From: Nemertoderma westbladi
Taxonomy: Eukaryota; Animalia; Xenacoelomorpha
DNA: 64,000 nucleotides
Reading direction: 5' to 3'
Assembly (NCBI GenBank): GCA_032718475.1
Contig: JAUCBJ010000021.1
Location: forward strand, 1 to 64,000
This document shows positions 34,001 to 57,570 of the stretch, piece by piece (within the stretch, counting starts at the first letter, position 1; every line of letters begins with the position of its first letter). Below the pieces are notes generated by a model. It made no database searches. It was given only the letters and a program-made list of their open reading frames with translations, and was not told where the DNA came from. Both the position numbers and the translations under genes were made by a program.

Positions 34001-34651
34001 GAAGCCCAATTTTAACTGATCAACTTTCACGAATCATTTAACTGCTCTGCTGTTGCATAAAGCACACCGAAATGTTACTAGACAGTTATTATAGTTTATT
34101 TATCTCCTTCTGAAATACACAGCCAGAGCGATTGCCATCGATCCAAGGCCAAGCAACAGAGCTATAATGGGGAACAGCAAGCTGAAAAATAAATGTTAAA
34201 TTACTAGTGATTACATGATAATAATAAAAATAATAATTTATTATTATTATTTATATTGTAAGCGGATTCAATTCCCTTCATTCTCCAGCCTAAAATGGGA
34301 CCAGTGGCATTTTACCAATATAGTTGGGGATACGAGATTACCAATAATAATCTCGCCTCATAACCAACTCGGTGGGGGGGGGGGGGGGGGGGGGGATACA
34401 GGCCCCAAAGCCACAGAGAGAGGGGAGAGGTCAAACCACCTCGGAGGGTAGAACACAGCTAGTCAAGGCTAGCGGCAGGGGGTAACACTCACACTCACAG
34501 GGAGTGCCAAAGTGACAATTAGTACATAAACCAATAGCAGGCAGGGGAGCACGTGGATAGAGATAGGAAAGCATCCATTGGGTACAGAAGGCCAAGAAGA
34601 GTAAGAGGTGAAACCAATATCTATGTGTATCAATCATATAGTTATTCTGTA

Positions 34652-36558
34652 TATTCGAAGAGACAGTAACAATACCTGCAATATCCTACTGTAAAGTTTG
34701 TGAATCAAATCATAAATCCGACCTTCTCACCAAAACAGTAAACTCTAAGTAAGCGAATATATTGCAGTATCGATCTCTTATAACCGGTGAGGCAGAAAAC
34801 AGTCTACGAGCAGACAAACTTCGATAAAACAAAATCCCGCGCAGCGAATCCTAAAATCAGGCTGACTCACTGACGGACTAAGGGGCTCGTATACCTTGCC
34901 GCGGTGTGATTTATATGGTTGGGCGAAAGGGACGCTAGCTAGGTACAGAGGCAGAGATTTGGAGATGTCTAACTAGCGGGCAAAGCACAGTAAGGACAAA
35001 GTTAATTTTATATATTTTGAGGTGTAAATAATTTCTAACGCGCGCGTGTGTTAATTCTAAACAGTCAAAAGCAGTTTTGCTCCTTCACATATATAATTAC
35101 TGGGTACGGTGTGCATTTTACAAATATTCTAATTTTGTAACTTGTAGGTCCAATACTCACGAATGATAAGGTTCCTTCCCCTCTTGCGTATTTCCAGGAC
35201 TCAAATTCAGGCATAAGGTTAATGCTACGCCCAGAATTCGGCAATTTTAATTTACCAGGTCCCTAATACTAAGAAGAAATATGTTAGTTTACTACTGTAG
35301 GCGTACAGTTACAAATAGCTATCCTGGCTCTTATCTAGAATTTTAGTCACCTAGGTAGGCTGGGTAACTTCCTATCAAGACGTTGGCGGGGACACGGTAG
35401 ATGTTAGTATATCCCTAATAGCCTCAATTTATTTTGCGCCTAGTTGTAAACTGCCCTACCGCCTGAACGGTACAATCCTAATTCAGGTGAAACACAGCAA
35501 CCCTCCTAGCCTACAAGTTCTAGTGCAATGGACACCGTTGTACTACAAATAGTCGCAGACGCACCTGCACTTAGCAAGAGTTAGGCGTACAGTTTGCTGC
35601 ACCCTACCAATGTGTATGCTTCGTACCGGTGTGCCTACGTCCTATCTGCGTACTAGTATCTGCCTGCTCTCTCTCTCCCCCCGTAGGAATGTGAAGGTCT
35701 ACTGTGGTTTTTTCCTGAATCAAGACAGTACGGTCCCTAAGATGTAATTTTAGGCTCACAGCGTGTCACTACTTCTACCCTTTTATCTTTGGTCTTACGC
35801 TTAGGTAGCAAGGCGTCGAACGCTGTCTAACCTTTCAGGCGATGGGCGAATAACTAAGGTGGTATTGCGGGTTGTCTCCTGTCTACATTCCCTTGATGTT
35901 CCCGTTCATCGCTGCGGCCCGATCTCTAGCCGGCCATCCTGATCCTAAGAGTGTTCACCGTAGTGAATCATGGTGAAAAGAAAAGCAGGTAGCGGTATTT
36001 CTGAATTTATTGCAGATAATAATACAAAATGTAATCTGAAAACTAATGACAGAATAAACAAATATCAGATAACTCAGAAGAGATAGAACATTGATAGATA
36101 GGATTGATAACTAATGAACAAATCGCACCTTTATATACCAAATTTGTGCCGCAATCAATCGAGAAAATTCTCGATTGTTCTATAGGTTCTAACAGGTTTT
36201 TAAAGATAACTATTGGTCCAGCTAATATATAACTTGCACGACATTGGTTACAATCAAATAACTACAGTCTCATTGGTTAATCTAGGTACAAACAAATGCA
36301 ATTTAATTTGTAGCGGTCAATTTAAATGAGTTGAAATTCTGCACAAAAAATAATTCGCACTTACTAGGATTCGAACTCAATACCTACTACACATATAATT
36401 TCCAACGCTCTACCGACTGAGCTACTGAACCACTTGACTAATAGGCGTACAATAGATATAGTAAATACAAATGAGGACTCAATGCAATCTTTTACAAAGT
36501 TAATTCGAATAAAATAAAATTTTGAAAATCCACGGCATTTAGGGAATATAATTCTATA
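34652..36558 (-). repeat. Element C 3' LTR
   Basis: Repeat of 49293-51199; preceded on the sense strand by GGAGCGG. Confidence 0.95.
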
Positions 36559-36689
36559 CCGCTCCATGAAAACAGGATATTATCGTGCATAAAATATACG
36601 GTTTTCACCAATAATCAATCAAACTATAGAATACTTAGGGCGTACTTACATATTTACAAATTAAATTTCAAACAATACTTCCTTTCTAC

Positions 36690-37445
36690 ATAATGATTCG
36701 ATACAAAATAATTACAAATTCAAACTTTACGTAGTTAATGCTTTACTAAGTAAGTACAATATAAATCTAAATTAAATTCACCAATATAAATCTATTGCAT
36801 CTCAATATTGCATAAATTCAAGCAATTACAAATACAAATAAATGAAAATCATAAGAAAGGCTCGCGAGTCTTCCATCTACTATTGCATCTCAAATATTGC
36901 ATAAATTCAAATAATTACAAATACTTTCGTGCCTAAATGTAGATTGCATAAGTTCGGAATAATTACAAATATGAGTCTTTCTAAGCACAAAACTTTCTAA
37001 CTATAAAACTTTCTAAATACAAAATATAACACTTTACAAATGAAACTATAAGAAAGGCCCACGAGTCTTCCATCTACTCATACTTTCTATTTCACTGTAA
37101 ATACAAATACTGCTTATAAGATATAAATTGCATAGTATTCGGAACAATATAAATTGCATAAGTTCGGAATAATTACAAATATAAAATATAAATTCTTACA
37201 AATATAAATTCTTACTAAATATAAGTCTTACTAAATATAGATATAAACTGCATAAGTTTAGAATAATATAAACTCCTTTGCATCTCAAATATGAAACATA
37301 CGCTTTCAAATATAAGTTCCTTCTAAATATAAACTTTCTAAATTTCATAAATTCGGAACAATACAAATTGTATAAGTTCGGATAAATATAAAATATATAA
37401 CTCAAATAAATCACAAATTCACAAGAAAGGCTCACGAGTCTTCCG
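36690..37445. repeat. AT-rich degenerate repeats in the C 3' UTR
   Basis: Recurrent TTGCATAAGTTCGGAATAATTACAAATA-like units and three AGAAAGGCYCRCGAGTCTTCC hairpin copies. Confidence 0.7.
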
Positions 37446-37464
37446 TCCACCCTTGCCCTCCCTT

Positions 37465-39068
37465 TTATCGCTTAGTTGATCGAGCCCTGCCGCGTCCTCG
37501 AAAACTGCGCACAGGTGACTTTGCTCGCGATATGGGACTTGTGGGGCGAGTCACTGGTTTCGTTTGGACGTTGAGAGACGGTGCGACTATTTCCTCGCAA
37601 ATTCGTCTATTTGGCATCCCAAAACCTCGACCGATTCCTCGTGACCGATCAGTTGTCACTACAGTTGGTAGAACGTCTGGGAACGCGCGAGAAACGGACG
37701 ACGCAGACCCAAGAGTAGCTTGCGCCCCCTTTTGATCAGCTGGTGTATGTCCCGATCCTCCTGTTGGTTCTCTAGGAAGCGATACCGTATCCCGAGTAAT
37801 TCGAATAGTCGTCTCAACTCCCTTGCGTTCTTCTATATTGATAGACTTCTTTAACTGTTGGCCCACTTTCTGGACCCGTATGATCCTACCCTGTCCGTCC
37901 TCCCGAGGGTGACGTGCAGACGGCGCAACCGGAGTGGCTGGTATATTTGTCGCCTCTAGGACCTCCTCTTCCTCGAATACGCTCGCTCGTATACGTTTAT
38001 GGTAAAACGCGGCTCGGTACGCCCATGCGACGGTTAACCAAGCTCCTTTATTCCGCCTTTCAGTTCGGAAACGATCGAATTCACCATACGTGATGCGATT
38101 AACGACTTTCTGAAAATTCCACGTGTTTTTGTTATCCGGGTGAATCTGTAATAGATACTCGCGCACTACTCGGAATCCACTGTCGTGGGGCAAAATATCG
38201 ACTACCTCGATAAGTTCGTCATATTGGGGCATAGCGGAGATGTATCCTTCCGACATCATCGTTTGGGGATTTACCGCCCAAAATCCAAGATGCGCTCTCA
38301 TCGGAAACCGTCTTCTTTGTGCCGATACATGTTCGTCGGCTAAATCTTCCCACTCATCGAATAATTTTCTCACGAGTTTTACAGATTCGTGTTCATAGGG
38401 TATGTCTCTTAGTTGGCATTCAGATGCTCGATGTCCTTTTATATTGCAATAAGTACATTGAGCCATAAATCTCCAGCAAGTATAAAAGGTATGAGACCCT
38501 TGATCTCCACACCATCCACAGATTAGCTGAGTCGTAGTAATGTGCTTTCCACTGCACTTGGTCGAATGATGTCCAGCGACGCCACATTTACCACACATCG
38601 TATTGGCAGGGTACCACACTCGTTCGTATATAAGATCTCCAATCGGTCGAGCGCTTCCTCCCACACTATAATCGTAATCATCTGGATCTATGGGTTGGTA
38701 GGTTTCTGAAGGTTGTATACAAACTATAGCATCTGTTGCTTCAAGTTGTCGAATCTCCGTCTGAGATTTCTTCGGGAGGTTCCTTTCTATCTCAAGAAGT
38801 TCCTCTAAAGGATCGTCAGCGATCGTAGTAGTTACTTCGAAATCATCACCAAGGTGACCGATAGGCGCACGCGTCTGCCGTGATTCGTTCGTAACCTCCA
38901 CGATACCGTCGTGTCATATTTAGTGTTTGCGAGTTTCGCTGTACTTTCTGATAATTCCTTTATACCAAATATAGTGTAGTCCTTGGCTCCAAATCTTTCG
39001 AATGGCGCTGCTGCCTCCTCTTGGATATCATATCCCCATCTCGGCTCTCCTTGTATCCCTTTCTCCAT
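37465..39068 (-). CDS. Extra 3' ORF of element C: triple CCHC-type zinc-knuckle protein with a basic RG tail (one frameshift near 38905)
   Basis: 478-aa ORF with CGKCGVAGHHSTKC, CGWCGDQGSHTFYTC, CTYCNIKGHRASEC and RGRGRAR; an overlapping ATG-initiated 78-aa ORF joins by a one-base shift. Confidence 0.75.
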
Positions 39069-39732
39069 AATTAGAGGTGTAGTTACATAATCATTACTAC
39101 TAGAGGGAATACAACAGAGTTTGTAGTTAGTTGTGAGGAGACGTGAGAGTTTCGTCTGCCCTTTGGGCTCGACAACGCTCTAACCTCCTACCCATAGCCT
39201 AAGATCTAGGGTTTCTTTAATGACACGCTGCTTCTTATCTAAAATTTTTTTTTTGCCGAAATAAAAACGAATTTGGGCTAAACTGGCTGTGAGTCTAAAA
39301 TACTCACTTTTTGATCCCAAACTATTATCAGAAAATAAGCAATCAAGAATTAGTAATAAATATAGGGGAGTCTATTTATTGACGTAACTTATTGAAACAA
39401 GACCGTGTAAAATTTAATTAAAATTTTAAGAAAGGCTCGCAAGTCTTCCTCTCTTGTTTCTCTAATTTTAAGTTCCACCCGACTGTACCCTGAAATCTAT
39501 TCACTGGAGAAAATTTTAAAATTTTTCAAATCCAAATGGATTGTCTAAAATTTCGAAAATGTCTCAATATTGTGAGTTCCAAGTAGAATTCCATTTCTTA
39601 TACCTACAAATCCCGCTCCTATGTGATACATAAGGGTACTACCCTCAATGTTCACATATAAAGACAATGGAATTCTACCGCTGTCCTTACTACAGTGTAC
39701 AGGTACGTGGAAATCTATTTTTAAACTCCTAA

Positions 39733-41826
39733 TTATTTACTAGTATTAGGTGGAGATTTGTAGTCTCCAGACTCGTTACGAGTCTCTTCAAGAAGTACGA
39801 GACGTTGAGTCGGTCTGTCTACTGTACGACCGTCAATTGTCCGTACCGTCACAGTTCTTGTCACTCCATCCATAGATGGATGTGTGGCTAAAATTACACC
39901 TGTTATCCAGAAGCGTCTTTTTAGATTCACTTCTGCTAACAGCACGTGATCTCCCGGCTTTAATGCGCGGGTGTTATTATACCAAGTTGTTCTGGCAGAA
40001 ATAGAGGGCAAATAATGGTTTTGCCATATTTCCCAGAATTTGTTAGCTAGTAGTTGCGTGATTTTCCACGCTTTTCTACCGTAGCTATCGCCTTCCATTG
40101 GAATAGAAATAGGCGTCAATGTGGTCGGTGCCTGCATTAGCAGGTGTGCCGGTGTCAAAGCAAACTGAGATTGTTTGTCATCGGGTACTAATACTATTGG
40201 TCTAGTATTTAGTATTGCCTCGATTTCAACAAACAGTGTTGTCAGTTGGTCGTCTGTCAATATGTGGTTTACTGGAATGACCTTTGCCATTGCCGTTTTT
40301 ATAGATCTAATCAATCTCTCCCAGACTCCGCCTCTCCATGGACTATCTGGAGGATTAAACTTCCAAACAATCTTGTGAGGTTGTAGTTCGTTCGAGATTT
40401 GATCATGATCTAATTTCTTAAAGGCTCTAGCAATCTCATTCCGAGCACCAACAAAGTTTGTCCCTTGGTCTGAGTACAAGCATTTCACTAGTCCGCGTCT
40501 AGCGATAAATCGCCGCAATGCTAGTATAAACGCGTTGGTGGAAAGATCCATCACACGTTCAATATGAACTGCCCTACTGGACATACATGTGAAAATCAGT
40601 CCCCAGCGTTTTACTAGTATACGTCCACGTTTCGTATGTATGGGACCAAAGCAATCAATTCCAGTCTCTGTAAAAGGTGGTCTGAATGCTTGAAGTCGTG
40701 CTTGTGGAAGTTCACTCATTTCTTGGGTACCTATTCTAGAATGTACCTTTTTACAAATAATACACGTACGTGTCACTGAACTTAATGCTTTACTGGGTCT
40801 AATTAATACAAATCTTGTACGTAAGTAGGAAAGACAGTGGTGTCTTCCAGCGTGTTTCAGATGTAAATGTGCGTCCAGTATCATTGCACGTTGTAGTTCG
40901 TGATGTTGTGGTATTATTATTGGGTATCTAAAGTTTGTGTTAAAGTCAATGTTTTGAAGCCGAGATTTATGACAAATTAAGCCATTATAAATAATCGGAC
41001 TCCAACTCAGTATTGGTGACGACTTGATTGGTTGACCTTGATTTATAGATGTGAATTCGCGCGCGAAATATCGCAGTTGGTAATGGCGAATTAATTTAAT
41101 CTCACACCTGTCAATCTCAGCCAATGTAAGTCGACGTGTAAAGTCGCGTTTGCCTTTAACGTATTGTACAAAACGTACAATCCACGCTAATTTTCGGCAA
41201 GCGTTCGTCCAAGAATCTGTTAAGTTTACAATACGGTCGACGTAAGTATTTGTGACGTCATCAGGTAAGTCAATGGAGAATTTGGAAGGTTTTGATTTAC
41301 TAGAAGGGCCCACGGGTCCGCCGGTAAGTATTCCCTTGTTGATTGTTGATCCGTCCGGGTCTACAAGTAATTTGTCCTTCTTCGTCTTCTTACCTTGGTT
41401 GTCAGTACTTTGTAAGTCGATCGTTAATGGTGGTTTGAACTCTATGGGGTCAGTGGGTTTCGGTAAACTTATTTTTCTGCCGATATTAATCCCAGGTCTC
41501 ACCATAGGTTGCAAGTTTGGTATGTCTCTTGAGCGCAAAGTAACACCTGTATTTACATTAGCGTAGGTACTACCCACATCTGTAATACATGAGGTTTCAC
41601 CGTGCTTATGGTCGCTCAAGTGTGTCAAAATTGGTAGTTTGTCAATACAAGGCCGCTCCAATAGGGAAACTGCGGCTTTTCTATTTGTCAATATGTTACT
41701 AGTGTCTGGTAGAACATTTTGTGACATGTCTGGTGAAATGTTTCGCGGAACATCCGGCGAAATATCTAATGACGTGTCTAGCAAAACGTCTGGTTGACTC
41801 TGGTAACGTATCTGGTTGTTTGTCAA
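39733..41826 (-). CDS. pol: Element C integrase (HHCC, DDE core, BEL C-terminal domain); separated from RT-RH by a 2-nt deletion near 41800
   Basis: HLHLKH..CIIC, GIDCFGP, YSDQGTNF, GGVWERLIRSIK, EIEAILNTRP, DGVTRTVTV, RPTQRLVLLE. Confidence 0.92.
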   Translation of the reverse strand: MTNNQIRYQSQPDVLLDTSLDISPDVPRNISPDMSQNVLPDTSNILTNRKAAVSLLERPCIDKLPILTHLSDHKHGETSCITDVGSTYANVNTGVTLRSRDIPNLQPMVRPGINIGRKISLPKPTDPIEFKPPLTIDLQSTDNQGKKTKKDKLLVDPDGSTINKGILTGGPVGPSSKSKPSKFSIDLPDDVTNTYVDRIVNLTDSWTNACRKLAWIVRFVQYVKGKRDFTRRLTLAEIDRCEIKLIRHYQLRYFAREFTSINQGQPIKSSPILSWSPIIYNGLICHKSRLQNIDFNTNFRYPIIIPQHHELQRAMILDAHLHLKHAGRHHCLSYLRTRFVLIRPSKALSSVTRTCIICKKVHSRIGTQEMSELPQARLQAFRPPFTETGIDCFGPIHTKRGRILVKRWGLIFTCMSSRAVHIERVMDLSTNAFILALRRFIARRGLVKCLYSDQGTNFVGARNEIARAFKKLDHDQISNELQPHKIVWKFNPPDSPWRGGVWERLIRSIKTAMAKVIPVNHILTDDQLTTLFVEIEAILNTRPIVLVPDDKQSQFALTPAHLLMQAPTTLTPISIPMEGDSYGRKAWKITQLLANKFWEIWQNHYLPSISARTTWYNNTRALKPGDHVLLAEVNLKRRFWITGVILATHPSMDGVTRTVTVRTIDGRTVDRPTQRLVLLEETRNESGDYKSPPNTSK

Positions 41827-44800
41827 TAGAAGGCCGCTCCAATAGAGAAACTGCGGCTTTACTATTTGTCAGTATGTTACTAGTGTCTGGTAGAACATTT
41901 TGTGATATGTCTGGCAAAATGTCTGGTTGGCTGTCTAGTAACGTGTCTGTTTGACCGTCTGGCGATATGTCTGGTGTAGAAAGGCTCGCAAGTCTTCCTC
42001 TCTTGACCTTTGAAGTTATATCTTTCCATTTCGCCTTCGGTTTTTTCTTGAGTTTAGCCGCCGTCCTTTTCTTTGCCTTCCCCTTTTTTGGTTTCTTGAT
42101 TTCGGCGTCCTTAGGGATGGTGTTAGACTTGTTGTCGTATAACGGTGGCCAATCTTGCGTCGATTTCTGCAAGAATTGGGGTCCGTGTTGCCAAAATTCT
42201 TTGTTCTCCGGTTTACAGAATTCCTCAGGCATCATTCCTCGCGACGCAATATCGGCTGGGTTTTGTGGTCCGGGACAATGTCGCCAATCTTCTTTTATTG
42301 AACGGTCTAGAATCTCTGCGCGACGGTTAGCTACGAATGTCTTGAATTCAAGTGTGTCGTTGTTTATGTAAAATAAAACCAACGTCGCGTTAGTCCAATA
42401 AAATATCTGTAAACTTGACTGTAGTTCTGTCTGTATAAGGTTCACGATGGTGGTTGACAGGGTTGCGGCTTGTAGCTCAGCTCGTGGTGTCGTCATATAC
42501 TTAGTAGGCATTGTTTTTGCCTTAGAAGTAATGAGCGAAACATCGAATTCTTCTGAGTCTACTTGTCTGCGCAAGTACGCTACCACACCAAAACCGTTGT
42601 CACTGGCGTCAGAAAAACAATGTAATTCCAAGTTGTCAGGAAACGTTGTTTGTAATGGAAAGTAGACTCTGGGTATGGAATAATCCTCTAGCGAAGATAA
42701 TTCTGCCTCCCAGGTCTTCCATAAGTCCACTTGGTCTGATGAGATCGGCTCGTCCCATGTCAGTCCATCTTTCCAAATACTGCGCATATAAATGCGGGCT
42801 TGCAGTATTATTGGACTGATGAATCCTAATGGATCGAACAATCGGCTCAATTTTGACAAGCATGATCTCTTTGTCAGTGTGTTTTCTTGACTGTCCAGTC
42901 TTACCTTCACTCGAAAGTTGTCCGTGTTTGGGTCCCAAAAGAGCCCCAACACCTTGGTCGTCGGTAGTGGTTCGAACTCTAGGTCTATGTCACCACCTCC
43001 ACGCTCAGTCGTTCCGAATGAGTCTACTAATTCGGCACTGTTTGAGGCGAATTTGGTGAGGTTAAAACCTCCGCCCGCTAAGCAGTCCCGTAATTGATGT
43101 GCTACTGTTGTAGCACGTTCTACTGTGTCGCAACTCTGTAAACCGTCGTCGACGTAAAAGTCACGTTCCACAATCCTAATTATCTCTGGGTCATACAAAT
43201 GTTTCTGATCCCTAGCGGCTTGCTTTAGGGCATACATCGTACAGTTTGGGCTGTCCCTGGCACCGAAAACGCGAACTTGCATTTGGTAAGTCGCCGGTGG
43301 TAGACTTAAGTCTCCTTCCGGATACCAGAGGAACCTCAAACTGTCTCTGTCTTGCTCTAACGCTCTCACTTGGTGAAACATAGCTTCAACGTCGCAAGTA
43401 AAAGCTACTTGACGCTGACGGAAGCGCATAATCACCCCCATAAGATAATTATTCATGTTTGGTCCATCCATCAACTTGCTATTGAGGGACATTCCCTCAA
43501 ACAGAGCAGCACAGTCATTGACTACACGTACTTTGTCTGGTTTGTCGGGGTGTCTCACAAAGTGATGTGGCAAATAGTATGTCTGGTTAGTCACTATCTC
43601 TGGGTTAGTCATTCGGATAGCGTATCCCTTGGTCAAATACGTCTCCATCTGAGTGTTGTACTGCAGATGGGCTTTCTCGTCCTTTAATAGACGTTGTCGT
43701 ATTGAGTGTAGACGTCTTAAAGCTAGTGGGTAGTTATTTATGAGTTTAGGACTTTGGCTACGCCATAACATCCCTACCTCATAATGTCCGTCTTTCGTCT
43801 GGCGGATAGTATCTTCCATGATCTTCAAAGATTGTTTCTCTTGTTCCGACATACATGGTTCGTAGCTACCAGGTTCAGCTGTATCTTGTTCTAACCACCT
43901 GATAGTCTTCTCCGTTAATTCTTTGTCCAATACAGCTTGTTCCACTTGATGATTTCTCAACTCGTCATCATCGATATCGACGGGCATTGTTGAGGTTGTT
44001 GGGGTAGGTAGACTCGCAAGCCTTCCGGCGTTATCATCTGTCTTCGATGGAATCTCTAGCTGACTCGTCTTCTCCCCAAGTTCTAAACTCACCTGGTGGA
44101 TTAGCTGCTCCTTGTGACTTATCATACTAGTTACACGTCTGTCATGTTTTGTATGTAAGGTAGTATGGTCCACGTCGTGTGAAAAGGAATGAATTGAATT
44201 TGTAGTTAATAAACTACATGTACTTTGTACATCGTCTTCCTCGTCACTTATGTCCAGTGTGCGCACAGGCGCTCGAGTATACCACCCTATCGGCGTCCTA
44301 CAGGCGTATGCGTTTCCCGCTACGACTGCCGATGGTCTGGTTTCCCACACTTGATGTAGGTTGAATTGGTCTGTCCCGATCAGCATTGCTACCGATCTAT
44401 AATTGACAGGACATTCAGGTACACCAAGGTGTCTGAAATACTTACGGTCCTCCAAGGATTGCTCTGGGACAGGACCTAGTAGGTTACTAAAGTCTTTGGT
44501 GGCCGCAAAAGTCAAATCCTTGAAGGGTAACAAAGACCTCTCCTTTTCGCTGTGTTGCGATTTTGGAAGAAGAGTGTCTAAGTCCAACTTAACTCGTGTC
44601 ACTGGTATTGCACGTTGTCCGTGCATACTACTTACGGTGTAACTGACGCGCTTACCTTGTCTGAGATCCGTTACTACATCAGCTATCTGTTCATCCACGT
44701 AGCTGTGAGATGAGGCTGAATCCAAGATAGCGTAGATTCTCTTGCTCCCCTTTATGCCAGTAATCTTAATCGGAATTACACTGAATCCCTTTAATTGGTC

Positions 44801-45550
44801 AGTCGTCAGAAGCGCGATCGATGGTTGTTCGTCTCCATCAGAATATACGTCGTCGTCTTCTGACTCTTCGTCCGACGATCCGGATTGTTCTGAGAAGCAA
44901 TCCTTGATATGTGTCACAAAGGTTGGAGTCGTTTTCGATTCTCGATTTTTGTAGGCCGCATTACATTTCGCTGCTGCTTCCGGGTATTCCCTGGCGAAGC
45001 GTTTTGTCGGCGTGTGGCTGTCTGTATGGAGCAGACCGTCGTGGTTGCGTCCACAGGATGGACAAGTGTCGGTATTTGGGCAATCCTTGCGAACGTGTCC
45101 GTGTCGCGTACACCGCCAACAAGAGTCCAATGGCCGTATCTGCAGCCGTCGTTCTTCCGAGTTTAACTCGCGAAACTGTCGACAACCTCTCAACTTGTGA
45201 CCGATATACCGCTTGCCTAGATGCTCGCAGTATTGGCAGCCGCTGAAGTTGGTACTGAGTTGCTGTCTCGTCTGTTTTGTCCCAATGGGCGCAGATACCC
45301 TACTACCGTCCGAGAATTGTCGTGATTCCGTCGGTGTGGCGTAAGTGGCCGTCTTAGTGGATGTTGTCTGGGGTTTTTGTCGGTTTGAGGATGGCAAGGT
45401 GATTCCTTCTGCCACGATGTGCTGGTCAGTGTAGTTGGATCGAGTTTCTACCACTGCCTCCCTGGATATCAAAAGGTACACATCCTCCAGTTTTAAGAAT
45501 CCACCCCGCTCTTCTCGCTGGTATTCGATCTTCCTCCACTCCCGACGAAG
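41699..45550 (-). CDS. pol: Element C Gag zinc knuckles, protease, RT and RNase H
   Basis: CWRCTRHGHVRKDC, AILDSAS, YYLPHH..KVRVVND, DVEAMFHQV, FGARDSP, FYVDD, FDPLG, FSDAS, TPRAELQAA, NPADIASRG. Confidence 0.95.
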   Translation of the reverse strand, partial: LRREWRKIEYQREERGGFLKLEDVYLLISREAVVETRSNYTDQHIVAEGITLPSSNRQKPQTTSTKTATYATPTESRQFSDGSRVSAPIGTKQTRQQLSTNFSGCQYCEHLGKRYIGHKLRGCRQFRELNSEERRLQIRPLDSCWRCTRHGHVRKDCPNTDTCPSCGRNHDGLLHTDSHTPTKRFAREYPEAAAKCNAAYKNRESKTTPTFVTHIKDCFSEQSGSSDEESEDDDVYSDGDEQPSIALLTTDQLKGFSVIPIKITGIKGSKRIYAILDSASSHSYVDEQIADVVTDLRQGKRVSYTVSSMHGQRAIPVTRVKLDLDTLLPKSQHSEKERSLLPFKDLTFAATKDFSNLLGPVPEQSLEDRKYFRHLGVPECPVNYRSVAMLIGTDQFNLHQVWETRPSAVVAGNAYACRTPIGWYTRAPVRTLDISDEEDDVQSTCSLLTTNSIHSFSHDVDHTTLHTKHDRRVTSMISHKEQLIHQVSLELGEKTSQLEIPSKTDDNAGRLASLPTPTTSTMPVDIDDDELRNHQVEQAVLDKELTEKTIRWLEQDTAEPGSYEPCMSEQEKQSLKIMEDTIRQTKDGHYEVGMLWRSQSPKLINNYPLALRRLHSIRQRLLKDEKAHLQYNTQMETYLTKGYAIRMTNPEIVTNQTYYLPHHFVRHPDKPDKVRVVNDCAALFEGMSLNSKLMDGPNMNNYLMGVIMRFRQRQVAFTCDVEAMFHQVRALEQDRDSLRFLWYPEGDLSLPPATYQMQVRVFGARDSPNCTMYALKQAARDQKHLYDPEIIRIVERDFYVDDGLQSCDTVERATTVAHQLRDCLAGGGFNLTKFASNSAELVDSFGTTERGGGDIDLEFEPLPTTKVLGLFWDPNTDNFRVKVRLDSQENTLTKRSCLSKLSRLFDPLGFISPIILQARIYMRSIWKDGLTWDEPISSDQVDLWKTWEAELSSLEDYSIPRVYFPLQTTFPDNLELHCFSDASDNGFGVVAYLRRQVDSEEFDVSLITSKAKTMPTKYMTTPRAELQAATLSTTIVNLIQTELQSSLQIFYWTNATLVLFYINNDTLEFKTFVANRRAEILDRSIKEDWRHCPGPQNPADIASRGMMPEEFCKPENKEFWQHGPQFLQKSTQDWPPLYDNKSNTIPKDAEIKKPKKGKAKKRTAAKLKKKPKAKWKDITSKVKRGRLASLSTPDISPDGQTDTLLDSQPDILPDISQNVLPDTSNILTNSKAAVSLLERPSIDKQPDTLPESTRRFARHVIRYFAGCSAKHFTRHVTKCSTRH

Positions 45551-48484
45551 TCAATGGTGGAGTCGTCCTATGATCTTTAATAGGACTGTAGGGGTATTCC
45601 CGTAGTCAAGTTGTCCAATGGATCTCAAAGTAGTGATAGCGTTCTTTATCTCGTCAGCCAGTTTCAATAAGTCTACGGGTTTAGTAATAGCCCCTCCCTT
45701 ACAGAGTTCCTCTATCACTGACCTGGCCATGCTGACTGTACCTCCGTAGATCGAAGTTAAACGATCGTACGCTAGTTCGAAAGCGTCCGGTACACCAACG
45801 AAGGTCTCCGCCAAACGTTTAGGTTCTCCTGACAACGTTTGAAGCAGGTAATTAAACTTCTCCCGTGATGTAAAGGCGCACACGGCGATCTGAGATTCGA
45901 TATAGTCTACGAAAGTATGCCAGTGTTTTGAGCTACCGGAAAACTTCGGTGGTTGTTGTACCGGCAATCCCTGTCTGGCTGCGAATTTCGCTATCTCCTC
46001 AGCAACGTTCAGAGTTTCGCGTCCTTGGTTGGTAATCTGGTTGATATCCCTTCTTGGCGCTTTTCCCTGATACGAAGTATGTTTTGAAGGTACCGGTCTT
46101 TGTGGTTCCTTCGGGTGTCTATTGTGTTCGAATTCAGTGTTCCTCGAACTATCGGTTTGAACTTCCTCCAGACGTTCCTCAATCTGAGCCAACTTGTTAA
46201 CAACTGGTCGCAGGATGTCGGCGAACTGTTGTGTACTGATTGCGTCCGTTGGTTGTAACGTCTTCTGTGTTGGTGTATTTTGTGGAGGATTGTCTACAAA
46301 GGAGTTGTCTGAACGCTCGCGTTTATATTCATCGGCCGCCCCTGTTCTAAATACCTCGCGTTTCGGGTAATCCGATTCGCTCGAAGTACTACTATCATCT
46401 GGATATGGTGGTCGACGTGTTCGCGTCCGTTGCGTCGTACGAATTCTAACGTTTCGTTTCGGAACATCGTCCACTGATCTCCGTTGTTCGGTAGGCTCAC
46501 AAGTCTTCCTCGAAGTCGTAGATTGCGATGTAAACTGGTTGAACGGTCGCGTATCCACTGGTCTCCGTTGTTCGGTAGGCTCACAAGTCTTCCTCGAAGT
46601 CGTAGATTGCGATGTAAACTGAACCGGTGGTCGGACGACAGCGTTTGAATCCAAAGGCTTTGTAGGCCTAAACGTCATTGGGTACGTGTAGTGCATAACG
46701 AGTTTTGGTGTCGAAGGTGGACTCACCTGTTTAGTCGTCAGTAGTGCAGGTCTGGTCAACAAACTACTACGATCTGTAATCGGTGGGTTACTTACCTTGA
46801 CTTTTAGAATAGGCGACGACGTTGCTCTTGGCGGTGTAAACTTGTCCGGAATAACAAACCTGTGTTCCGTCGCACCACGGATAGGAGAAATGTTACTACT
46901 ACCCGCAATCGAAACAGGTTCCTTAGTCGTAACTGGTGCAAACATAGGAGTTACTTGAGGGAATCTTTGACATAAGTCTTTAACTAATTGTCGTTCCCGT
47001 CCAGGTGCTCCTATCGAACCTTCCTTCATTCGTTCCTGGATTTGGCGGTGCCTTACCTCCATCTGGTCTAAATCATGTCCATCTCGAGATCTCATCGATC
47101 GATCGCGGGCTTGTAGATCCAGGTCTTCCTTGGCGTTGGCTAATTCTCTCGCCTTCTTCTCGAGTTCGAAACGAAGTTTAACTTCTTTCTCGCGTTGTTC
47201 CGTTTGTTGTTGTTGCGCCTCGAACTCCGCTTGTCGTATAGCTGATTGAGCCTTTATTTGCCGTTTTTTCATTTCGGTTCTCGCTTCTGAAGCTAACCTT
47301 TGTCGCTCTAACTCGGACGCTGCCGCTGCCGCTGCCGCTGCTGCTTGTCGCTCTAACTCGGCCGCTGCCGCTTGTCGCTCTAACTCGGCCGCTGCCGCTT
47401 GTCGCTCTAACTCGGCCGCTGCCGCTTGTCGCTCTAACTCGGCCGCTGCCGTTCGTTGCGCTAACTCGGCCACTGCTGCTTGTTGTGCAATGTCCAACTC
47501 TAACCTTTCCATTTCGGCTACTTCCAACTCAGCTTGTTCTTGCAGATGAGAGATTCTCGCAACATTCGCAACGCGTAGTTTCTCTTCTTCTGCTGCTACT
47601 TGTGCCATTAAGAATTGAGTTTGTTCCTCCCACTCTTGTTGTTGTCTGTAGATCTGCTGTTGTCGAGCAATTTCTGACGTAGCCATACTCACCTCGCCAA
47701 TTTCGCTGCGAATACTCACCAGTGATTGATCTAGTGTTCCCGGTACCGGTTCGATTTGTGCGAGTGAAGTTTCCCTCGTAGCCTCCGGCACGGTTTCCCA
47801 ATCTCCGACGTCCTCGCCGCACATACGTAAGTGATCCGTCAGGTGTTTCAATTGTCCATCCAGCCTATACAGTTCCTGTTCTTCCTCGGGCTGCAATAAT
47901 TCGTCCGAAACTGACTCACCTAACAACTGGTCCGCTTGTTCCTGTTGTATCTGCCTAATCGTCGACTTAAACTGAATCAGTTTCTCTCTAGCGATCATTA
48001 GTTTCTCGAGGATTCTAAGTTGAGTATCCATGTCCTGTCTCTGTCTAGCTAGATCTTGTAGACCAATTAGGTTATCTACGGACTTATATACTTTACTCTG
48101 TACTCTAACCTGGAGGGTGTAGAACTCGAATCGAGACATCGGAGCGGTCAACTCGTCTAATATGCGTTGGCCTTCTCCAATACTCCTGGTTATATGCGCC
48201 ATGTATCCTCCGACGCTTCTAACCACACTTTCTGTGCTTCCTGCTGAACTTACCATCTCCGTTTCCCTGTATCTAGGTTGCGGGACCGTTAGGAAATCCT
48301 CAGTCCTGCCGTCGCCTCGTACTACGGCATCCGGTACTCCCGTTGGATGTACTGGTGACGCGCACGGTGTAGGTTCGGTAGGCTCACGAGTCTTCCCCTG
48401 TGGTTCTTCCGCTTCTGACTTATCTCCGTCACATGAGTCATAGTCGGTTTGTGTATTTTTCGTATAGTCTTGTTTGTCACTCAT
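45551..48484 (-). CDS. gag: Element C Gag N-terminal part (coiled coil, AAAELERQ repeats, DUF1759-like); in-frame TGA at 45551-45553
   Basis: PPKFSGSSKHWHTF..KFNYLLQTLSGEPK; the frame continues after the stop into LRREWRK and the downstream ORF. Confidence 0.9.
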   Translation of the reverse strand: MSDKQDYTKNTQTDYDSCDGDKSEAEEPQGKTREPTEPTPCASPVHPTGVPDAVVRGDGRTEDFLTVPQPRYRETEMVSSAGSTESVVRSVGGYMAHITRSIGEGQRILDELTAPMSRFEFYTLQVRVQSKVYKSVDNLIGLQDLARQRQDMDTQLRILEKLMIAREKLIQFKSTIRQIQQEQADQLLGESVSDELLQPEEEQELYRLDGQLKHLTDHLRMCGEDVGDWETVPEATRETSLAQIEPVPGTLDQSLVSIRSEIGEVSMATSEIARQQQIYRQQQEWEEQTQFLMAQVAAEEEKLRVANVARISHLQEQAELEVAEMERLELDIAQQAAVAELAQRTAAAELERQAAAAELERQAAAAELERQAAAAELERQAAAAAAAAASELERQRLASEARTEMKKRQIKAQSAIRQAEFEAQQQQTEQREKEVKLRFELEKKARELANAKEDLDLQARDRSMRSRDGHDLDQMEVRHRQIQERMKEGSIGAPGRERQLVKDLCQRFPQVTPMFAPVTTKEPVSIAGSSNISPIRGATEHRFVIPDKFTPPRATSSPILKVKVSNPPITDRSSLLTRPALLTTKQVSPPSTPKLVMHYTYPMTFRPTKPLDSNAVVRPPVQFTSQSTTSRKTCEPTEQRRPVDTRPFNQFTSQSTTSRKTCEPTEQRRSVDDVPKRNVRIRTTQRTRTRRPPYPDDSSTSSESDYPKREVFRTGAADEYKRERSDNSFVDNPPQNTPTQKTLQPTDAISTQQFADILRPVVNKLAQIEERLEEVQTDSSRNTEFEHNRHPKEPQRPVPSKHTSYQGKAPRRDINQITNQGRETLNVAEEIAKFAARQGLPVQQPPKFSGSSKHWHTFVDYIESQIAVCAFTSREKFNYLLQTLSGEPKRLAETFVGVPDAFELAYDRLTSIYGGTVSMARSVIEELCKGGAITKPVDLLKLADEIKNAITTLRSIGQLDYGNTPTVLLKIIGRLHH

Positions 48485-49281
48485 TTCGGTAGTTGTAAGT
48501 CAAGTAAAGTGAGTGTCAAGGTATCAAATTTACCGTATTTTATCTAAACGGTACTAATTACAGTCATATAAAATTAGCCTACCGGCCGATTTTATAGCAG
48601 ATGGATAAAATTAGCCTAGACGGCCAATTTTACAGCAAATAAATGTCACGGAATAAGTATATAATAAAATTAGCCTAGCGGCCAATTTTATAACAAATAA
48701 ATCGGATAACGATATGCGTTATCAAAAGGTAAATTAAATACAATAATACGGACTAATTCAGCAATGAACAAAGAAATCATACGGAATGCATAAATACTTG
48801 AGACAGTGGAACCCACAATAATTTTAACTAATACGGTAATGCCTAACTTATTTATGCAACTTTTCGAACTCACCCACTCCAATAATTCTCCAGAAAAACA
48901 GATTCCCAGATACAAACCGGACGTGAACCTTTCCGTTTTCAGCGTTGCGGACGAAGCGCGATTTTCCCAACCAAAGTTGTTGAGTTATCTATCTCCCAAA
49001 CTTGCTAAACACGGTCTTGCTCCCGTTACAGTCTAGAAATGAGTTCTGAATCCTGAAAAACAAAAGAGTTAGGTTTTACTTTTACGAAAAATTTTGTACC
49101 GGTACAATATGGTATTTAAACCCTTTTAAACACCGGTATTCAATTCCAAAATATTTTACACGCGGTTCAAATCAAATTTTATTTCAAAAAATTAGCACTT
49201 AGCTAATCAAATATAAATTTTTACCTCAAAATACAAAATTTTCAAATAACTTTAGTCCTACCGAACCGTAGTTCAGTAAAA

Positions 49282-49292
49282 CACATTCCTAC
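49282..49292 (-). other. Element C non-tRNA primer-binding site (sense GTAGGAATGTG)
   Basis: Abuts the 5' LTR; 11/11 complementary to LTR 50324-50334 (sense CACATTCCTAC). Confidence 0.85.
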
Positions 49293-50770
49293 TATTCGAA
49301 GAGACAGTAACAATACCTGCAATATCCTACTGTAAAGTTTGTGAATCAAATCATAAATCCGACCTTCTCACCAAAACAGTAAACTCTAAGTAAGCGAATA
49401 TATTGCAGTATCGATCTCTTATAACCGGTGAGGCAGAAAACAGTCTACGAGCAGACAAACTTCGATAAAACAAAATCCCGCGCAGCGAATCCTAAAATCA
49501 GGCTGACTCACTGACGGACTAAGGGGCTCGTATACCTTGCCGCGGTGTGATTTATATGGTTGGGCGAAAGGGACGCTAGCTAGGTACAGAGGCAGAGATT
49601 TGGAGATGTCTAACTAGCGGGCAAAGCACAGTAAGGACAAAGTTAATTTTATATATTTTGAGGTGTAAATAATTTCTAACGCGCGCGTGTGTTAATTCTA
49701 AACAGTCAAAAGCAGTTTTGCTCCTTCACATATATAATTACTGGGTACGGTGTGCATTTTACAAATATTCTAATTTTGTAACTTGTAGGTCCAATACTCA
49801 CGAATGATAAGGTTCCTTCCCCTCTTGCGTATTTCCAGGACTCAAATTCAGGCATAAGGTTAATGCTACGCCCAGAATTCGGCAATTTTAATTTACCAGG
49901 TCCCTAATACTAAGAAGAAATGTGTTAGTTTACTACTGTAGGCGTACAGTTACAAATAGCTATCCTGGCTCTTATCTAGAATTTTAATCACCTAGGTAGG
50001 CTGGGTAACTTCCTATCAAGACGTTGGCGGGGACACGGTAGATGTTAGTATATCCCTAATAGCCTCAATTTATTTTGCGCCTAGTTGTAAACTGCCCTAC
50101 CGCCTGAACGGTACAATCCTAATTCAGGTGAAACACAGCAACCCTCCTAGCCTACAAGTTCTAGTGCAATGGACACCGTTGTACTACAAATAGTCGCAGA
50201 CGCACCTGCACTTAGCAAGAGTTAGGCGTACAGTTTGCTGCACCCTACCAATGTGTATGCTTCGTACCGGTGTGCCTACGTCCTATCTGCGTACTAGTAT
50301 CTGCCTGCTCTCTCTCTCCCCCCGTAGGAATGTGAAGGTCTACTGTGGTTTTTTCCTGAATCAAGACAGTACGGTCCCTAAGATGTAATTTTAGGCTCAC
50401 AGCGTGTCACTACTTCTACCCTTTTATCTTTGGTCTTACGCTTAGGTAGCAAGGCGTCGAACGCTGTCTAACCTTTCAGGCGATGGGCGAATAACTAAGG
50501 TGGTATTGCGGGTTGTCTCCTGTCTACATTCCCTTGATGTTCCCGTTCATCGCTGCGGCCCGATCTCTAGCCGGCCATCCTGTTCCTAAGAGTGTTCACC
50601 GTAGTGAATCATGGTGAAAAGAAAAGCAGGTAGCGGTATTTCTGAATTTATTGCAGATAATAATACAAAATGTAATCTGAAAACTAATGACAGAATAAAC
50701 AAATATCAGATAACTCAGAAGAGATAGAACATTGATAGATAGGATTGATAACTAATGAACAAATCGCACC

Positions 50771-50917
50771 TTTATATACCAAATTTGTGCCGCAATCAAT
50801 CGAGAAAATTCTCGATTGTTCTATAGGTTCTAACAGGTTTTTAAAGATAACTATTGGTCCAGCTAATATATAACTTGCACGACATTGGTTACAATCAAAT
50901 AACTACAGTCTCATTGG
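50771..50917 (-). promoter_or_regulatory. Putative Pol II promoter: three CCAAT boxes about 30 bp apart and TATATAAA
   Basis: ATTGG on + at 50853, 50884 and 50913; TTTATATA at 50771-50778. Motif match only. Confidence 0.55.
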
Positions 50918-51003
50918 TTAATCTAGGTACAAACAAATGCAATTTAATTTGTAGCGGTCAATTTAAATGAGTTGAAATTCTGCACAAAAAATAATTCGCA
51001 CTT

Positions 51004-51072
51004 ACTAGGATTCGAACTCAATACCTACTACACATATAATTTCCAACGCTCTACCGACTGAGCTACTGAACC
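51004..51072 (-). other. tRNA-derived A-box/B-box cassette in the C LTR (copy at 36363-36431)
   Basis: Sense GGTTCAGTAGCTCAGTCGGTAGAGCG...GAGTTCGAATCCT; intact D-stem GCTC/GAGC, degenerate anticodon and acceptor arms. Confidence 0.7.
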
Positions 51073-51851
51073 ACTTGACTAATAGGCGTACAATAGATAT
51101 AGTAAATACAAATGAGGACTCAATGCAATCTTTTACAAAGTTAATTCGAATAAAATAAAATTTTGAAAATCCACGGCATTTAGGGAATATAATTCTATAC
51201 TGTATTACTGATTTACTGGTCAGTTCATTAATCACAGAGTTGCAGACCGGTTATAGTTTTTGACCGTTATCTAGTATCAATTACATATTTGCTGTTATTC
51301 TGTATTGCGATACGGATGACGGATTGCGGATGACGAGACATTAGACGGATCCCATTTCTCAAGTACCTGATCAAGCACTGACGAAAATGTGGGAGCCCGA
51401 CAGGAGGGGACGGAGAACAAAACAAACATCGGTTGAGTATAGGAGAACGGGGGGAAGTATGGAGAGGAGGTGTTGACATGCGTAGAAGTGAGAGGAGTGC
51501 AATTCAAGCGTGGGGAGCGAGCAGTGAGAGAGGAAGAGTCCCAAGGGACCAGAGAGAGAATAAGGGACAACAGGGTCCGTGAGAGAGTTTTTGAGTAGAG
51601 TTAAAGAAAATTGTGTGGAGAGAGAGCACAATTGTCTCAAACAGAGACACCAGATACCTTGGTGCAACATAGCTCACGATTGCACCAAGGAGGGCTAGTA
51701 ATAACCCACCCAGGGGGGGTGGTCAGGAAAGCCGACCCCGAGAAAAGAACTCCACCCCACACCCAATACTAGATTGGGTTCCAGCGGAATTGAAGCGCAC
51801 TTAAGAGAGATGCTATCTTCTTACCGGGAAGATAGCATGGGGGGAGGGGAG

Positions 51852-52494
51852 TGTAAGCGGATTCAATTCCCTTCATTCTCCAGCCTAAAATGGGACCAGT
51901 GGCATTTTACCAATATAGTTGGCGATACGAGATTACCAATAATAATCTCGCCTCATAACCAACTCGGAGGGGAGGGGGGGGGGGGGGCAATACAGGCCCC
52001 AAAGCCACAGAGAGAGGGAGAACACAGCTAGTCAAGGCTAGCGGCAGGGGGACTCACAGGGAGTGCCAAAGTGACAATTAGTACATAAGCCAATAGCAGG
52101 CAGGGGAGCACGTGGATAGAGATAGGAAAGCATCCATTGGGTAGAAAAAGGCCAAGTAGAGTAAGAGGTGAAACTAATATCTATGTGTATCAATCATATA
52201 TTTATTCTGTTTTACATGATTTACTGGTCAGTTCATTAATCACAGAGTTGCAGACCGGTTATAGTTTTTGACCGTCATCTATTATCAATTACATATCTGC
52301 TGTTATTCTGTATTGCGATATCAATCACATACTAATTCTGTGATATTATCATTTGGAACATTAACATTGAGAAACACATTAAACTCTGTTATTTTCCCCA
52401 ACGGCCTTCGGCCAAAAGGACACTAGCTCAGCAGCCCAGCAGTTAGGTGACGCGTACCAAACCTTACCCGGTCGGGATCTACGATCCCGTCACA
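51852..52494 (+). repeat. Element D 3' LTR (643 bp)
   Basis: TG...CA; homologous to 34257-34651 plus 51205-51312. Confidence 0.85.
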
Positions 52495-53206
52495 TATATT
52501 ATTTAGATAATTCAATATTTTGTCGGTCGAACTCTGGATTTGTTTAACCAACTACCGTACAATATCAGTACAGTATGATCGAAGTTGCAATAAACAGATT
52601 TTCGGTTTTAATAAAACCACGAATATTTCTCCTTTGGATTTTGGTTTAAAAAATCTCCCAGCCATTTTGTAAAACTAGTTAGTATACAGTTGTGAAACTT
52701 TACAAATCAATGTTGAATTAAATTACCTATCCAAATGTGTTAAACTTAGTCGTAGTTGTTACAAATATTGATGGGCCGACGAAAAAACATTACGGGTTGA
52801 GTTTTTTTGGTAACCATATGAAGATATGTCAAATCATAATCATATGGTAGTATTATTTTGTTTTTGTTTTTAATGTTTTAAAGGATACATTTTTTTTAAA
52901 TTTTTAATGTTTTAGTTAACATGTTGTAAAGTATTGGGCAATGTTACATAAATAAATGAAATAGTATTAATAGAAATAAAAAATGTAAATAAAAATAAAG
53001 TAGATATACCATTCCTCTAATAATAATTGATGCATTGTCATGTGATCTGATTATTTAAACCAATAAGATGAAATATTATTGTTTATAATGAGATTTACCT
53101 CCCATTCCTGTGCCATCCGTCTTCAACACTATATTCATCTAAAAAATAAGTACAAATAATTCTATACAATAGTGCTAAGTTATATTTTAAATTGACAGGA
53201 TGATAT

Positions 53207-53277
53207 AAGCCGGCATAGCATTCTTAAAAATGCAGCTGCAATGCAGCATGCCGATCCTAGAAGTAGTCCTAGTAGTA
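53207..53277 (+). mobile_element. Very short 3' tail of the RTE-like LINE family
   Basis: Reverse complement of about 57575-57645 (AATGCAGCTGCAATGCAGCATGCCGATCCTAG plus AGT repeats). Confidence 0.75.
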
Positions 53278-54551
53278 TGCTACGAAAAAATAGTAAGACT
53301 ATGCATGATCTACTAGATAGACCTATCTATTATTGTAGGTCATGCAATGATTGAAAATATTAAGTGCACAATAACATAAAGCGAATCTATTTAGCAGATG
53401 TCACATATTGGATACAAAAATAAGTAATATGCTATAATTATTGTCTGTTCGAGAATGGAATATACGGATACAATACTTGAAGCAAATTAATCTGAAACTA
53501 CAGAGGCCGTATAATCCGAAGTAGTTATATCAAAATTATAAAAATTAAGATTATATACGAATATAATACTGGTTTGTTGCCCCAGCAACGTGTAAATAAA
53601 AAGCGAGAATTAATGAGAAACTGTTATAAAAAAATATGTCACTTACTTATAGGGCAACAGAATCTCACTTTGTAGTTTTTACACCTCTTTCCATTATTAT
53701 CTTGTTTGCGACAGAGGAAGCCATCGGCTGCGTTATAGAAAGCGAATGTTTGTCCGGTGCTGGCAGCTGGTCTGTTATTAGAACGAACTTGAGCCTCTAT
53801 GGAACTAAATGGAATTGGATAGCAAATTTACAAATAATAAGTATAAATAAACTATAATAATGATTTAATGGATTTGGTAATATATTATACTTAAGTATAA
53901 TATAATATTGTTGTCAAAAAGTCAAGTTAACCGGGAGCAAATTTCCAACTTTTTTCGTCTGTAATTAAAGACAATGAAAGTCTCTGAGGTTTTGGTAGTT
54001 TAGTAAAATCGATTATTAGAAAGTCTATTAAAATATTTGATAAATGTGAGTTTTAGAAAACCCTTGCCAATGTGTTGATGATAATGAAAAACTAAAGTTA
54101 TTATTGGTTACCTATTCTATAAAATGTGATAAATACTGTCCAATCAGAGATTAGGATTTATGTAAATTGTTTGCACATTCCAAAATCTCAATGATTATGC
54201 CATGTATTTTTTTTTGGTTATTATAACTGTCATTTAACCCTAACCCTATGTTATAAACTTTGAAATACATTAATTCATACAATACAATACAATTCATTAA
54301 CGGCCTTTCGTGCCTATAGCATCATTTTCCATATTCCAGTGAATTTCATAAATTATGTCTTTAGTATAGTGTACTGTATTTTGATTGAATAGTAAAAAAA
54401 TACTTTTTATTATTGAAGATGTAATAACAATTACCGGTACTGAATATGCCGTAAGAATAACTAATTGATAGCTTATAAATATTAAAGTTTATTATTATAA
54501 TAAATTGTATTTTATATTTGATAAATATTGATAATTACTCAACATTATATA

Positions 54552-54566
54552 TGGTGACCCGGACGT
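54552..54566 (+). other. tRNA-Trp-like PBS of a CsRn1-like Gypsy remnant
   Basis: TGGTGACCCGGACGT versus the tRNA-Trp complement TGGTGACCCCGACGT; CsRn1-type gag lies downstream on the same strand. Confidence 0.6.
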
Positions 54567-54971
54567 CGAACTACTGAATATATAAAAAACTTACTACAGA
54601 ACTGTGTACCTAATTGATAATTGGAATATCGGCACCGGCTGACTGGTACCGCGAAACCATAATGCCCGATTTGCACAACCAACCCACTGCTATATTAGAA
54701 GCTGAACTCTCTACCTCATTAGGTTTGTTTTAAATTGGTTCGAAGGAATAATTATAAGTGAAACATTTTAATAAACGTTTGTTTTGTATAGACCGACAGA
54801 CCGACAGATAATTATGTATCAACGTATTTAATGAATAGTAATAAATATAAGTCGTTCAACAGATGTGTGCCCTAACAGCAATGAACACCCACCACCTATC
54901 ATAGGAAAGCAATAAAGGCACGAACTACTACATGCCCCAAAATGGAACTCGCTTAACATAAGATTGACATT

Positions 54972-55965: not shown

Positions 55966-56001
55966 TTTGCAATTACAATTACAATTACGATTACAATTAC
56001 G

Positions 56002-57510: not shown

Positions 57511-57570
57511 ATCGGGTAGGTACTTGGCAGGATTTCCTCAACTTCTGGTGCCAGTAGGAGAAGTCAACAA

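Follow-up and report, generated by a model that had tools for sequence, protein, structure and literature searches.

Eleven copies of a 20-nt self-complementary motif in a BEL/Pao retrotransposon of Nemertoderma westbladi, a candidate array of stem-loops in the element RNA

The BEL/Pao retrotransposon designated element C, located in a stretch of 64,000 nucleotides of Nemertoderma westbladi (GenBank assembly GCA_032718475.1, contig JAUCBJ010000021.1, positions 1 to 64,000; hereafter the window), was found to contain eleven copies of a 20-nt motif, all in the sense orientation of the element. The presence of the copies in two reading phases and in non-coding sequence bears out the original prediction of a constraint on the nucleotides, and double changes in two diverged copies support a constraint on base pairing as well. 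The explanation tentatively preferred here, with a probability of roughly 45%, is that the motif acts as a stem-loop of the sense RNA that is bound by a zinc-knuckle protein of the element and tags the full-length RNA. The eleven motifs would fold as small stem-loops, and the element's own knuckle protein, most likely the product of the extra open reading frame ORF3, would stabilise and read each weak stem-loop. The recognition mark may be a pair of guanines exposed in the loop together with a wobble, A-C or G-U, within the hairpin, and many weak sites along 11.5 kb would together favour complete RNAs over deleted ones at particle assembly. A packaging role of the motif is what we infer from this arrangement.

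The 64-kb window contains three long terminal repeat (LTR) elements, A (2282-14721, minus strand), B (17553-30374, plus strand) and C (34652-51199, minus strand). Nine copies of a 17-nt hairpin had originally been predicted in element C, and all nine were found to be genuine and correctly placed, with the exact AGGCTCRCRAGTCTTCC present in seven, one mismatch at 37055 and two mismatches at 44010; two further copies exist, which brings the total to eleven. The length was corrected to 20 nt by the addition of three further paired positions, and the sense-strand form of the nine first copies was found to be GGAAGRCTYGYGAGYCTWYC. The 28 identical bases shared by 39429 and 41978 consist of 7+20+1 bases, and the loops UGCG, CGCG, CGUG and UGUG were all recovered as predicted, as were the G-U pair in copy 44010 and the closing U-G in copy 37055. 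The nucleotides G1, G2, G5, C7, G10, G12, G14, C16 and C20 (9 of 20) were found to be invariant across the eleven copies, including both loop guanines, whereas the pair 6/15 was occupied by A-C in ten copies, by G-U in one and by a Watson-Crick pair in none.

The motif was found to be strongly enriched in element C. Matches to AGGCTCRCRAGTCTTCC with at most three mismatches numbered 12 against 0.21 expected, a count reached in none of 100 shuffles, and the top dispersed 14-mer of an unbiased search was the motif itself, with 8 clusters in C against 3 in each of A and B and 4 in one shuffle. A structure descriptor detected 11 sense-strand sites in C and the reverse reading of one of them, against none in 200 Markov simulations. 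No comparable array was found in elements A and B, either by sequence or by loop class, and Rfam covariance models gave no match at E ≤1 in 34600-51300. A covariance model of the motif recovered the copies on which it was trained and their reverse strands and, beyond these, a single doubtful site at E 0.21 (40829-40848, minus strand; matrix score 7.6), which lies in the integrase zinc-binding region with the same outer stem, full pairing and the loop CCAC and was left uncounted.

All copies lie on the minus strand of the window. Copy 1 (48377-48396, loop CGUG) was found in the gag N-terminus in phase 1, followed by copy 2 (46574-46593, loop UGUG, gag, phase 1) and the identical copy 3 (46490-46509), both within an 84-nt duplication, which agrees with the local duplication proposed earlier for some copies. 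Copy 4 (44007-44026, loop UGCG, phase 0) contained G6-U15 in place of A6-C15 in the protease-reverse transcriptase (RT) linker, followed by the presence of copy 5 (41979-41998, loop UGCG, phase 0) in the RNase H-integrase linker and the new copy 6 (41303-41322, loop CGUG, phase 0), with double changes at 4/17 and 8/13, directly ahead of the integrase core. Copy 7 (39430-39449, loop UGCG) was non-coding, between integrase and ORF3, and the new copy 8 (38860-38879, loop CGUG, phase 1), with a double change at 8/13, was located in the N-terminal part of ORF3. Copy 9 (37425-37444, loop CGUG) was found 20 nt past the ORF3 stop, followed by copy 10 (37052-37071, loop CGUG, U-G closing pair) and copy 11 (36855-36874, loop CGCG) in the 3′ untranslated region (UTR). 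Seven copies are thus coding, in two phases, and four non-coding; the predicted phases, reading KTREP/KTCEP and GRLASL, were upheld. The claim of copies in UTRs held for three in the 3′ UTR, whereas one copy lies between integrase and ORF3 and none in the 5′ leader.

The two new copies carry most of the evidence for pairing. A weight matrix built from eight of the nine first copies (one duplicate excluded) selected 38860-38879 (score 19.5) and 41303-41322 (13.1), together with one further match at 13.1 outside element C in which the pairing was not preserved. Both diverged copies were found to preserve the pairs 1/20, 2/19, 4/17, 5/16, 7/14 and 8/13, the A6-C15 mismatch and the CGUG loop. The U-A of pair 8/13 was replaced by G-C in one copy and by C-G in the other, and the A-U of pair 4/17 by G-C, so that three stem cells contained changes on both sides. 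Among 200 million random bases, 763 matches scored at least 12, of which one contained the full structure and none the structure with a double change. The covariation score on nine distinct sequences was 0.240, a value attained in 0 of 500 shuffles, although the shuffle disregards the relatedness of the copies, and three other measures were less clear (pairs with a double change equalled in 152 of 500, cells with a double change in 27 of 500 and further pair types in 120 of 500).

The paired changes also bear on a rival already named in the original prediction, namely a double-stranded DNA dyad for a dimeric protein, with ORF3 as a VANC-like anti-silencing factor or with a host reader of CpG/TpG on one strand. 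The motif is a 20-bp near-palindrome, and it resembles VANC21 targets (PMC5735166, in part) in its uniform orientation, in having multiplied locally within the 3′ UTR by duplication and in the extra ORF encoded by the element. Independent half-sites would not be expected to change together, and a match at 4 and 8 in both diverged copies would occur about once in 64 (worked by hand). The loop variation is confined to one strand, 9 against 0 among nine distinct copies that are not independent of each other. This C/T variation of the loop is selected or inherited, since element C is not depleted in CpG (observed/expected 1.14 against 0.59 in 52401-64000) and since C>T and G>A changes in the family are balanced (115 against 111 in the X1 contigs described below). 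Seven of the eleven copies lie in coding frames, where VANC-type sites form mainly non-coding tandem repeats, and none lies in an LTR. CCHC knuckles, moreover, as a rule bind single strands. The dyad is weakened and is regarded as unlikely, second among the rivals.

The copies span 11.5 kb of element C. Their largest gap is 2483 nt (P 0.03 under uniform placement), and the first nine form six clusters 1.8-2.6 kb apart (evenness P 0.0006), both figures being post hoc and confounded by the domain sizes. The three pol/integrase copies were found in blocks aligned by 0 to 9 of the best 120 relatives, whereas about 69% of the pol/integrase residues were covered by at least 30 of them, a placement that speaks for the preferred explanation; the region of the three gag copies was covered by none of the 120, which says little. 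Beyond the 84-nt duplication, at most 11 exact flanking bases are common to copies, the flanks being mostly decayed. The spacing and the decayed flanks bear on a neutral origin, in which a template-switch-prone palindrome was copied into tolerant linkers and homogenised without function. Some copies are indeed local duplications and neighbours share motif ends (a TACC group 5′-ward and a TTTC group 3′-ward), and palindrome-correcting template switches can produce symmetric changes. Such correction would, however, be expected to erase the A-C mismatch as well, the motif has not decayed with its flanks, the spacing is even, and none of the 15 joints listed (of 57) starts or ends inside a copy. 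Neutral spread is taken as the least probable of the rivals. A joint recorded as going back 85 was considered as an extra copy and rejected, as it is the natural upstream repeat.

Many variant copies of the family were present in public DNA runs of one organism (14,818 contigs in X1 and 6,494 in X3), and contigs of a subfamily of roughly 80% identity were observed among them. In the 3′ UTR, where the three motif copies make up 60 of 621 nt, 0 of 20 variant sites (P 0.13) and 0 of the 12 indels listed out of 18 (P 0.30) were found inside a copy, with a joint P of about 0.04, in a weak test in which a single contig cluster supplies 5 of the 20 sites and the contigs break at repeats. The coding motif copies contained none of the 40 variant rows listed (of 802) against 0.75 expected. 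Copy 10 (37052) was spanned by X3 and X4 contigs with a single difference elsewhere, and the U-G that closes its stem is therefore found beyond this element copy. The match of two X3 contigs stops at 36874, followed by sequence resembling the ORF3 stop region with about two-thirds identity by eye, which hints that a diverged subfamily preserves the stop-proximal copy.

Besides the limits already given with the covariation score and the 3′ UTR test, several findings weigh against the stem-loop as preferred here. The pairing evidence consists mainly of two copies chosen post hoc by a profile made from the other copies. A 9-nt deletion at 44023, found at a depth of 9,194 of 34,875 in X3, in the one X4 contig and rarely in X1, leaves the loop and all five core pairs of copy 4 (44007) unchanged (worked by hand), which speaks for the stem-loop, but it alters positions 2 and 3, and therefore G2 is not essential. 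The best 120 relatives hold no more than 11 scattered five-residue chance matches to the motif peptides, and protein-guided scans of viral and genome contigs returned no relative of element C. In the metagenome contigs scanned for the motif, 81 loci were found, none with a tblastn match to the C proteins and three with two loose matches, and the scan of viral sequences gave 2 single matches. The hairpin itself is weak. Each of the first nine 20-mers, taken in isolation, was predicted to fold into the sense-RNA hairpin (-0.4 to -4.9 kcal/mol), whereas with flanks of 15 or 40 nt its pair probability was at most 0.2, forcing the core pairs in context costs 0.2 to 8.4 kcal/mol, and for the two new copies a different fold is predicted at minimum energy even when they are taken by themselves. 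Pairing between two copies is, moreover, stronger than the folding of each on its own.

This last property is what would be expected of an RNA-RNA zipper, in which self-complementary palindromes pair two genomic RNAs in register about every 2 kb and the nucleocapsid protein (NC) serves as a chaperone only. The motif is self-complementary on the sense RNA, and its predicted homodimers (-8.2 to -25.3 kcal/mol) are far more stable than the isolated folds. The diverged copies pair with themselves (-19.0 and -22.7) far better than with most others, the double changes fit a zipper equally well, all 18 loop cells are self-complementary on the sense strand against 9 of 18 on the antisense strand, and dimerisation through palindromes is described for Ty1 (PMC8396678, in part). 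Any palindrome would do for this purpose, yet the motif contains nine invariant positions and a destabilising A-C in 10 of 11 copies, and out-of-register pairing would also be expected between copies that are nearly identical; copy 44007 pairs best with the other typical copies (-26 to -32). The zipper is placed as unlikely, though first among the rivals.

Nor does pairing fix the strand of the stem-loop, as 59 of the 72 stem cells are paired on the sense strand and 60 on the antisense strand. The antisense strand does better in the five core pairs (43 of 45 against 37 of 45), and a hairpin of that strand, which would have a CRCR loop and an uninterrupted core of 5 bp, might act in an antisense RNA or in the minus-strand cDNA. 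Isolated antisense RNA folds were more stable than sense folds in eight of nine cases, and the CRCR loop class gave 12 hairpins against 9 of the YGYG class on the sense strand. On that strand, however, the outer pairs are worse (17 of 27 against 22 of 27), the closing pair is lost at 37052 and the wobble at 44007, the DNA folds amount merely to 0 to -1.7 kcal/mol and no antisense transcript is known here; this possibility is regarded as improbable, third among the rivals. The sense strand is favoured as the working strand because it is the packaged strand, because the invariant loop letters are guanines there, which knuckles bind (PMC5035970, in part), and because the swap from A-C to G-U is described as isosteric (PMC5769748, in part). 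Use of the loop as a splice donor was also considered and rejected, as G precedes GY in no copy and the match is lost in the diverged ones.

For the stem-loop bound by a knuckle protein, element C offers two candidate ligands. It was found to contain two knuckle clusters, one in Gag (45026-45238) and one in ORF3 (38416-38595), whereas A and B contain only the Gag cluster and no motif array. ORF3 is slightly favoured over Gag NC as the candidate, because the second cluster and the array are both found in C and neither in A or B, and because five of the eleven copies lie in or around ORF3; this link comes from a comparison of one family with one related pair. The search for homologues of ORF3 gave no match among proteins of near length or shorter, and the search of the full library gave two, a coffee protein and a copia-type polyprotein, both driven by the knuckles. 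Scores of the leads in Atlas were all below 0.9, comparison with the PDB gave no match below E 0.09, comparison with the 3′ regions of A and B gave no homology (best E 0.28), and the single-sequence fold was unusable, with a mean predicted local distance difference test (pLDDT) of 36. As judged from its sequence, ORF3 is without relatives beyond a knuckle likeness to retrotransposon-type proteins. An extra 3′ ORF was found in each of A and B as well, in broken form and without relation to ORF3 of C.

A more ambitious form of the stem-loop explanation is a private two-part system, in which an accessory triple-knuckle protein and a cognate hairpin about every 2 kb would count both the length and the identity of the RNA. 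It is unlikely as it stands. If true, such a system would package the complete RNA of its own family and shut out deleted parasites. The selection of their own RNA by LTR retrotransposons is poorly defined, even in Ty1, the packaging sequence of which has been mapped no more closely than to a region (PMC8396678, in part). No such motif in BEL/Pao was found in the titles or abstract starts of the literature searched, a scope outside of which lie supplements and most subscription papers. With its naturally occurring covarying versions and two knuckle domains as candidate ligands, the 20-nt site lends itself to direct tests with short RNAs.

Element C, of 16.5 kb, was found to be flanked by a 5-bp target-site duplication (34647-34651 and 51200-51204). 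Its 5′ LTR (49293-51199, minus strand, 1907 bp) and 3′ LTR (34652-36558, minus strand) contained 3 differences over 1908 compared sites, which together with the duplication indicates a young insertion. No motif copy was detected in the LTRs or the 5′ leader, the range 48500-51199 having been scanned by matrix, descriptor and covariance model. TG...CA termini and a transfer RNA (tRNA) primer-binding site are usual for LTR elements and not decisive for the BEL/Pao superfamily; element C was found to contain TA...TA (TAT...ATA) ends on both LTRs, unlike the TG...CA ends of A and B, and no TGG behind the 5′ LTR. The stretch just 5′ of the 3′ LTR ends with GGAGCGG in C as in A and B. By its LTRs, short target-site duplication and domain set, element C is BEL/Pao, the domain order being DUF1759, triple knuckle, Peptidase_A17 and Integrase_H2C2 with DUF5641 at the end. 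Its closest relatives share 41-43% identity and the identical Pfam set, and the named relatives among the best 120 of 406 were almost all from fish and marine invertebrates.

The gag N-terminal part with DUF1759 (45551-48499, minus strand) was found to end in an in-frame stop (45551-45553) ahead of the knuckles, followed by the presence of the Gag knuckles, protease, RT and RNase H with Peptidase_A17 (41699-45550, minus strand). The integrase with Integrase_H2C2 and DUF5641 (39733-41868, minus strand) is in a different frame, behind a 181-nt duplication (41632-41922), and is followed by ORF3 (37465-38913, minus strand), an additional 3′ ORF that is an orphan and encodes three CCHC knuckles. 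This copy of the element is broken by the gag stop, by the frame shift that the 181-nt duplication causes before integrase and probably by frameshifts in ORF3. Element C was observed to be inserted in one terminal repeat of a small outer element (34257-34651, 51200-51330 and 51852-52340), the repeats of which lie about 520 nt apart.

The TGG of a tRNA primer site was absent in all three BEL/Pao-type elements, and the 11 nt after each 5′ LTR were found to have an exact complement within the element's own LTR, with 0.0004 to 0.0015 expected for each. The primer-binding position of C (49282-49292, minus strand) is exactly complementary to LTR 50324-50334, that of A (13556-13566) to LTR position 420 and that of B (18779-18789) to LTR position 485; eight start offsets were tried, and all three elements matched at the first. 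A and B differ at 5 of the 11 primer letters at the same LTR position with the pairing preserved. Self-priming of the Tf1 type, known for Tf1/sushi, Tcn1 and TAR elements (PMC6317226, in part), thus appears likely for A, B and C from their sequences, and no paper on self-priming in BEL/Pao was found in the literature searched. In the leader of C, an 11-nt stretch (49257-49267) was found to be complementary to the end and the 3′ flank of motif copy 48377, and is also predicted to lie inside a local 12-bp hairpin directly behind the primer site.

Elements A and B are young and related, with LTR identities of 98.7% and 99.6%; the gag and protease-like part is kept in both, and domain searches gave no RT, RNase H or integrase match. 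The palindrome TACCGGTA was found in 5 copies in A (11818-12067) and 4 copies in B (20726-20903), in both elements within local repeats of the 5′ leader. Gag of A (10350-10512), B (22245-22550) and C (47307-47510) was found to include an expanded coiled-coil repeat rich in alanine. Fragments of a non-LTR element with endonuclease and RT matches were found between A and B (14899-17430), and an inverted repeat of 130 nt, 98% complementary and with an 8-nt spacer, was found at 60117-60384.

When compared with known systems, the original proposal of distributed packaging or binding sites for a knuckle protein stands with respect to the constraint on nucleotides and pairing, whereas its precedent, the packaging signal of Rous sarcoma virus (RSV), is weaker than had been stated. 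RSV NC does bind the guanines of a UGCG loop, as had been claimed, but the specific recognition by Gag was not reduced when UGCG was changed to GAGA, nor was packaging in vivo reduced by a change of 2 nt in the loop (PMC5035970, in part). Like stem-loop C of the RSV Psi signal, the motif contains a UGCG loop in 3 of 11 copies, and element C encodes a CCHC knuckle protein; unlike Psi, which is one structured region of the 5′ leader, the sites in C are eleven, separate and absent from the leader. The motif resembles PAL1 and PAL2 of Ty1 and the retroviral dimer-initiation palindromes in that a self-complementary sequence permits RNA-RNA pairing (PMC8396678, in part); there, one or two sites near the 5′ end are described, whereas the motif of C is repeated over 11.5 kb and keeps both certain letters and a mismatch constant. 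With VANDAL21 and VANC21 it shares a short family-specific motif in one orientation, local-repeat growth and an extra element gene alongside (PMC5735166, in part), and it differs from the VANC motif, a mainly non-coding 9-base double-stranded DNA site of a plant DNA transposon, in being a 20-nt covarying palindrome mostly of coding linkers. The closest likeness in layout is with the single-stranded RNA viruses and the hepatitis B pregenome, whose dispersed packaging signals are numerous small stem-loops that have a recognition motif in common and are scattered over the genomic RNA, coding sequence included (PMC6281560, in part). Compared with the viral signals as described there, the motif of C is found in a BEL/Pao retrotransposon, its copies are much more alike, with 9 of 20 letters invariant, and its candidate ligand would be a zinc-knuckle protein in place of a coat protein.

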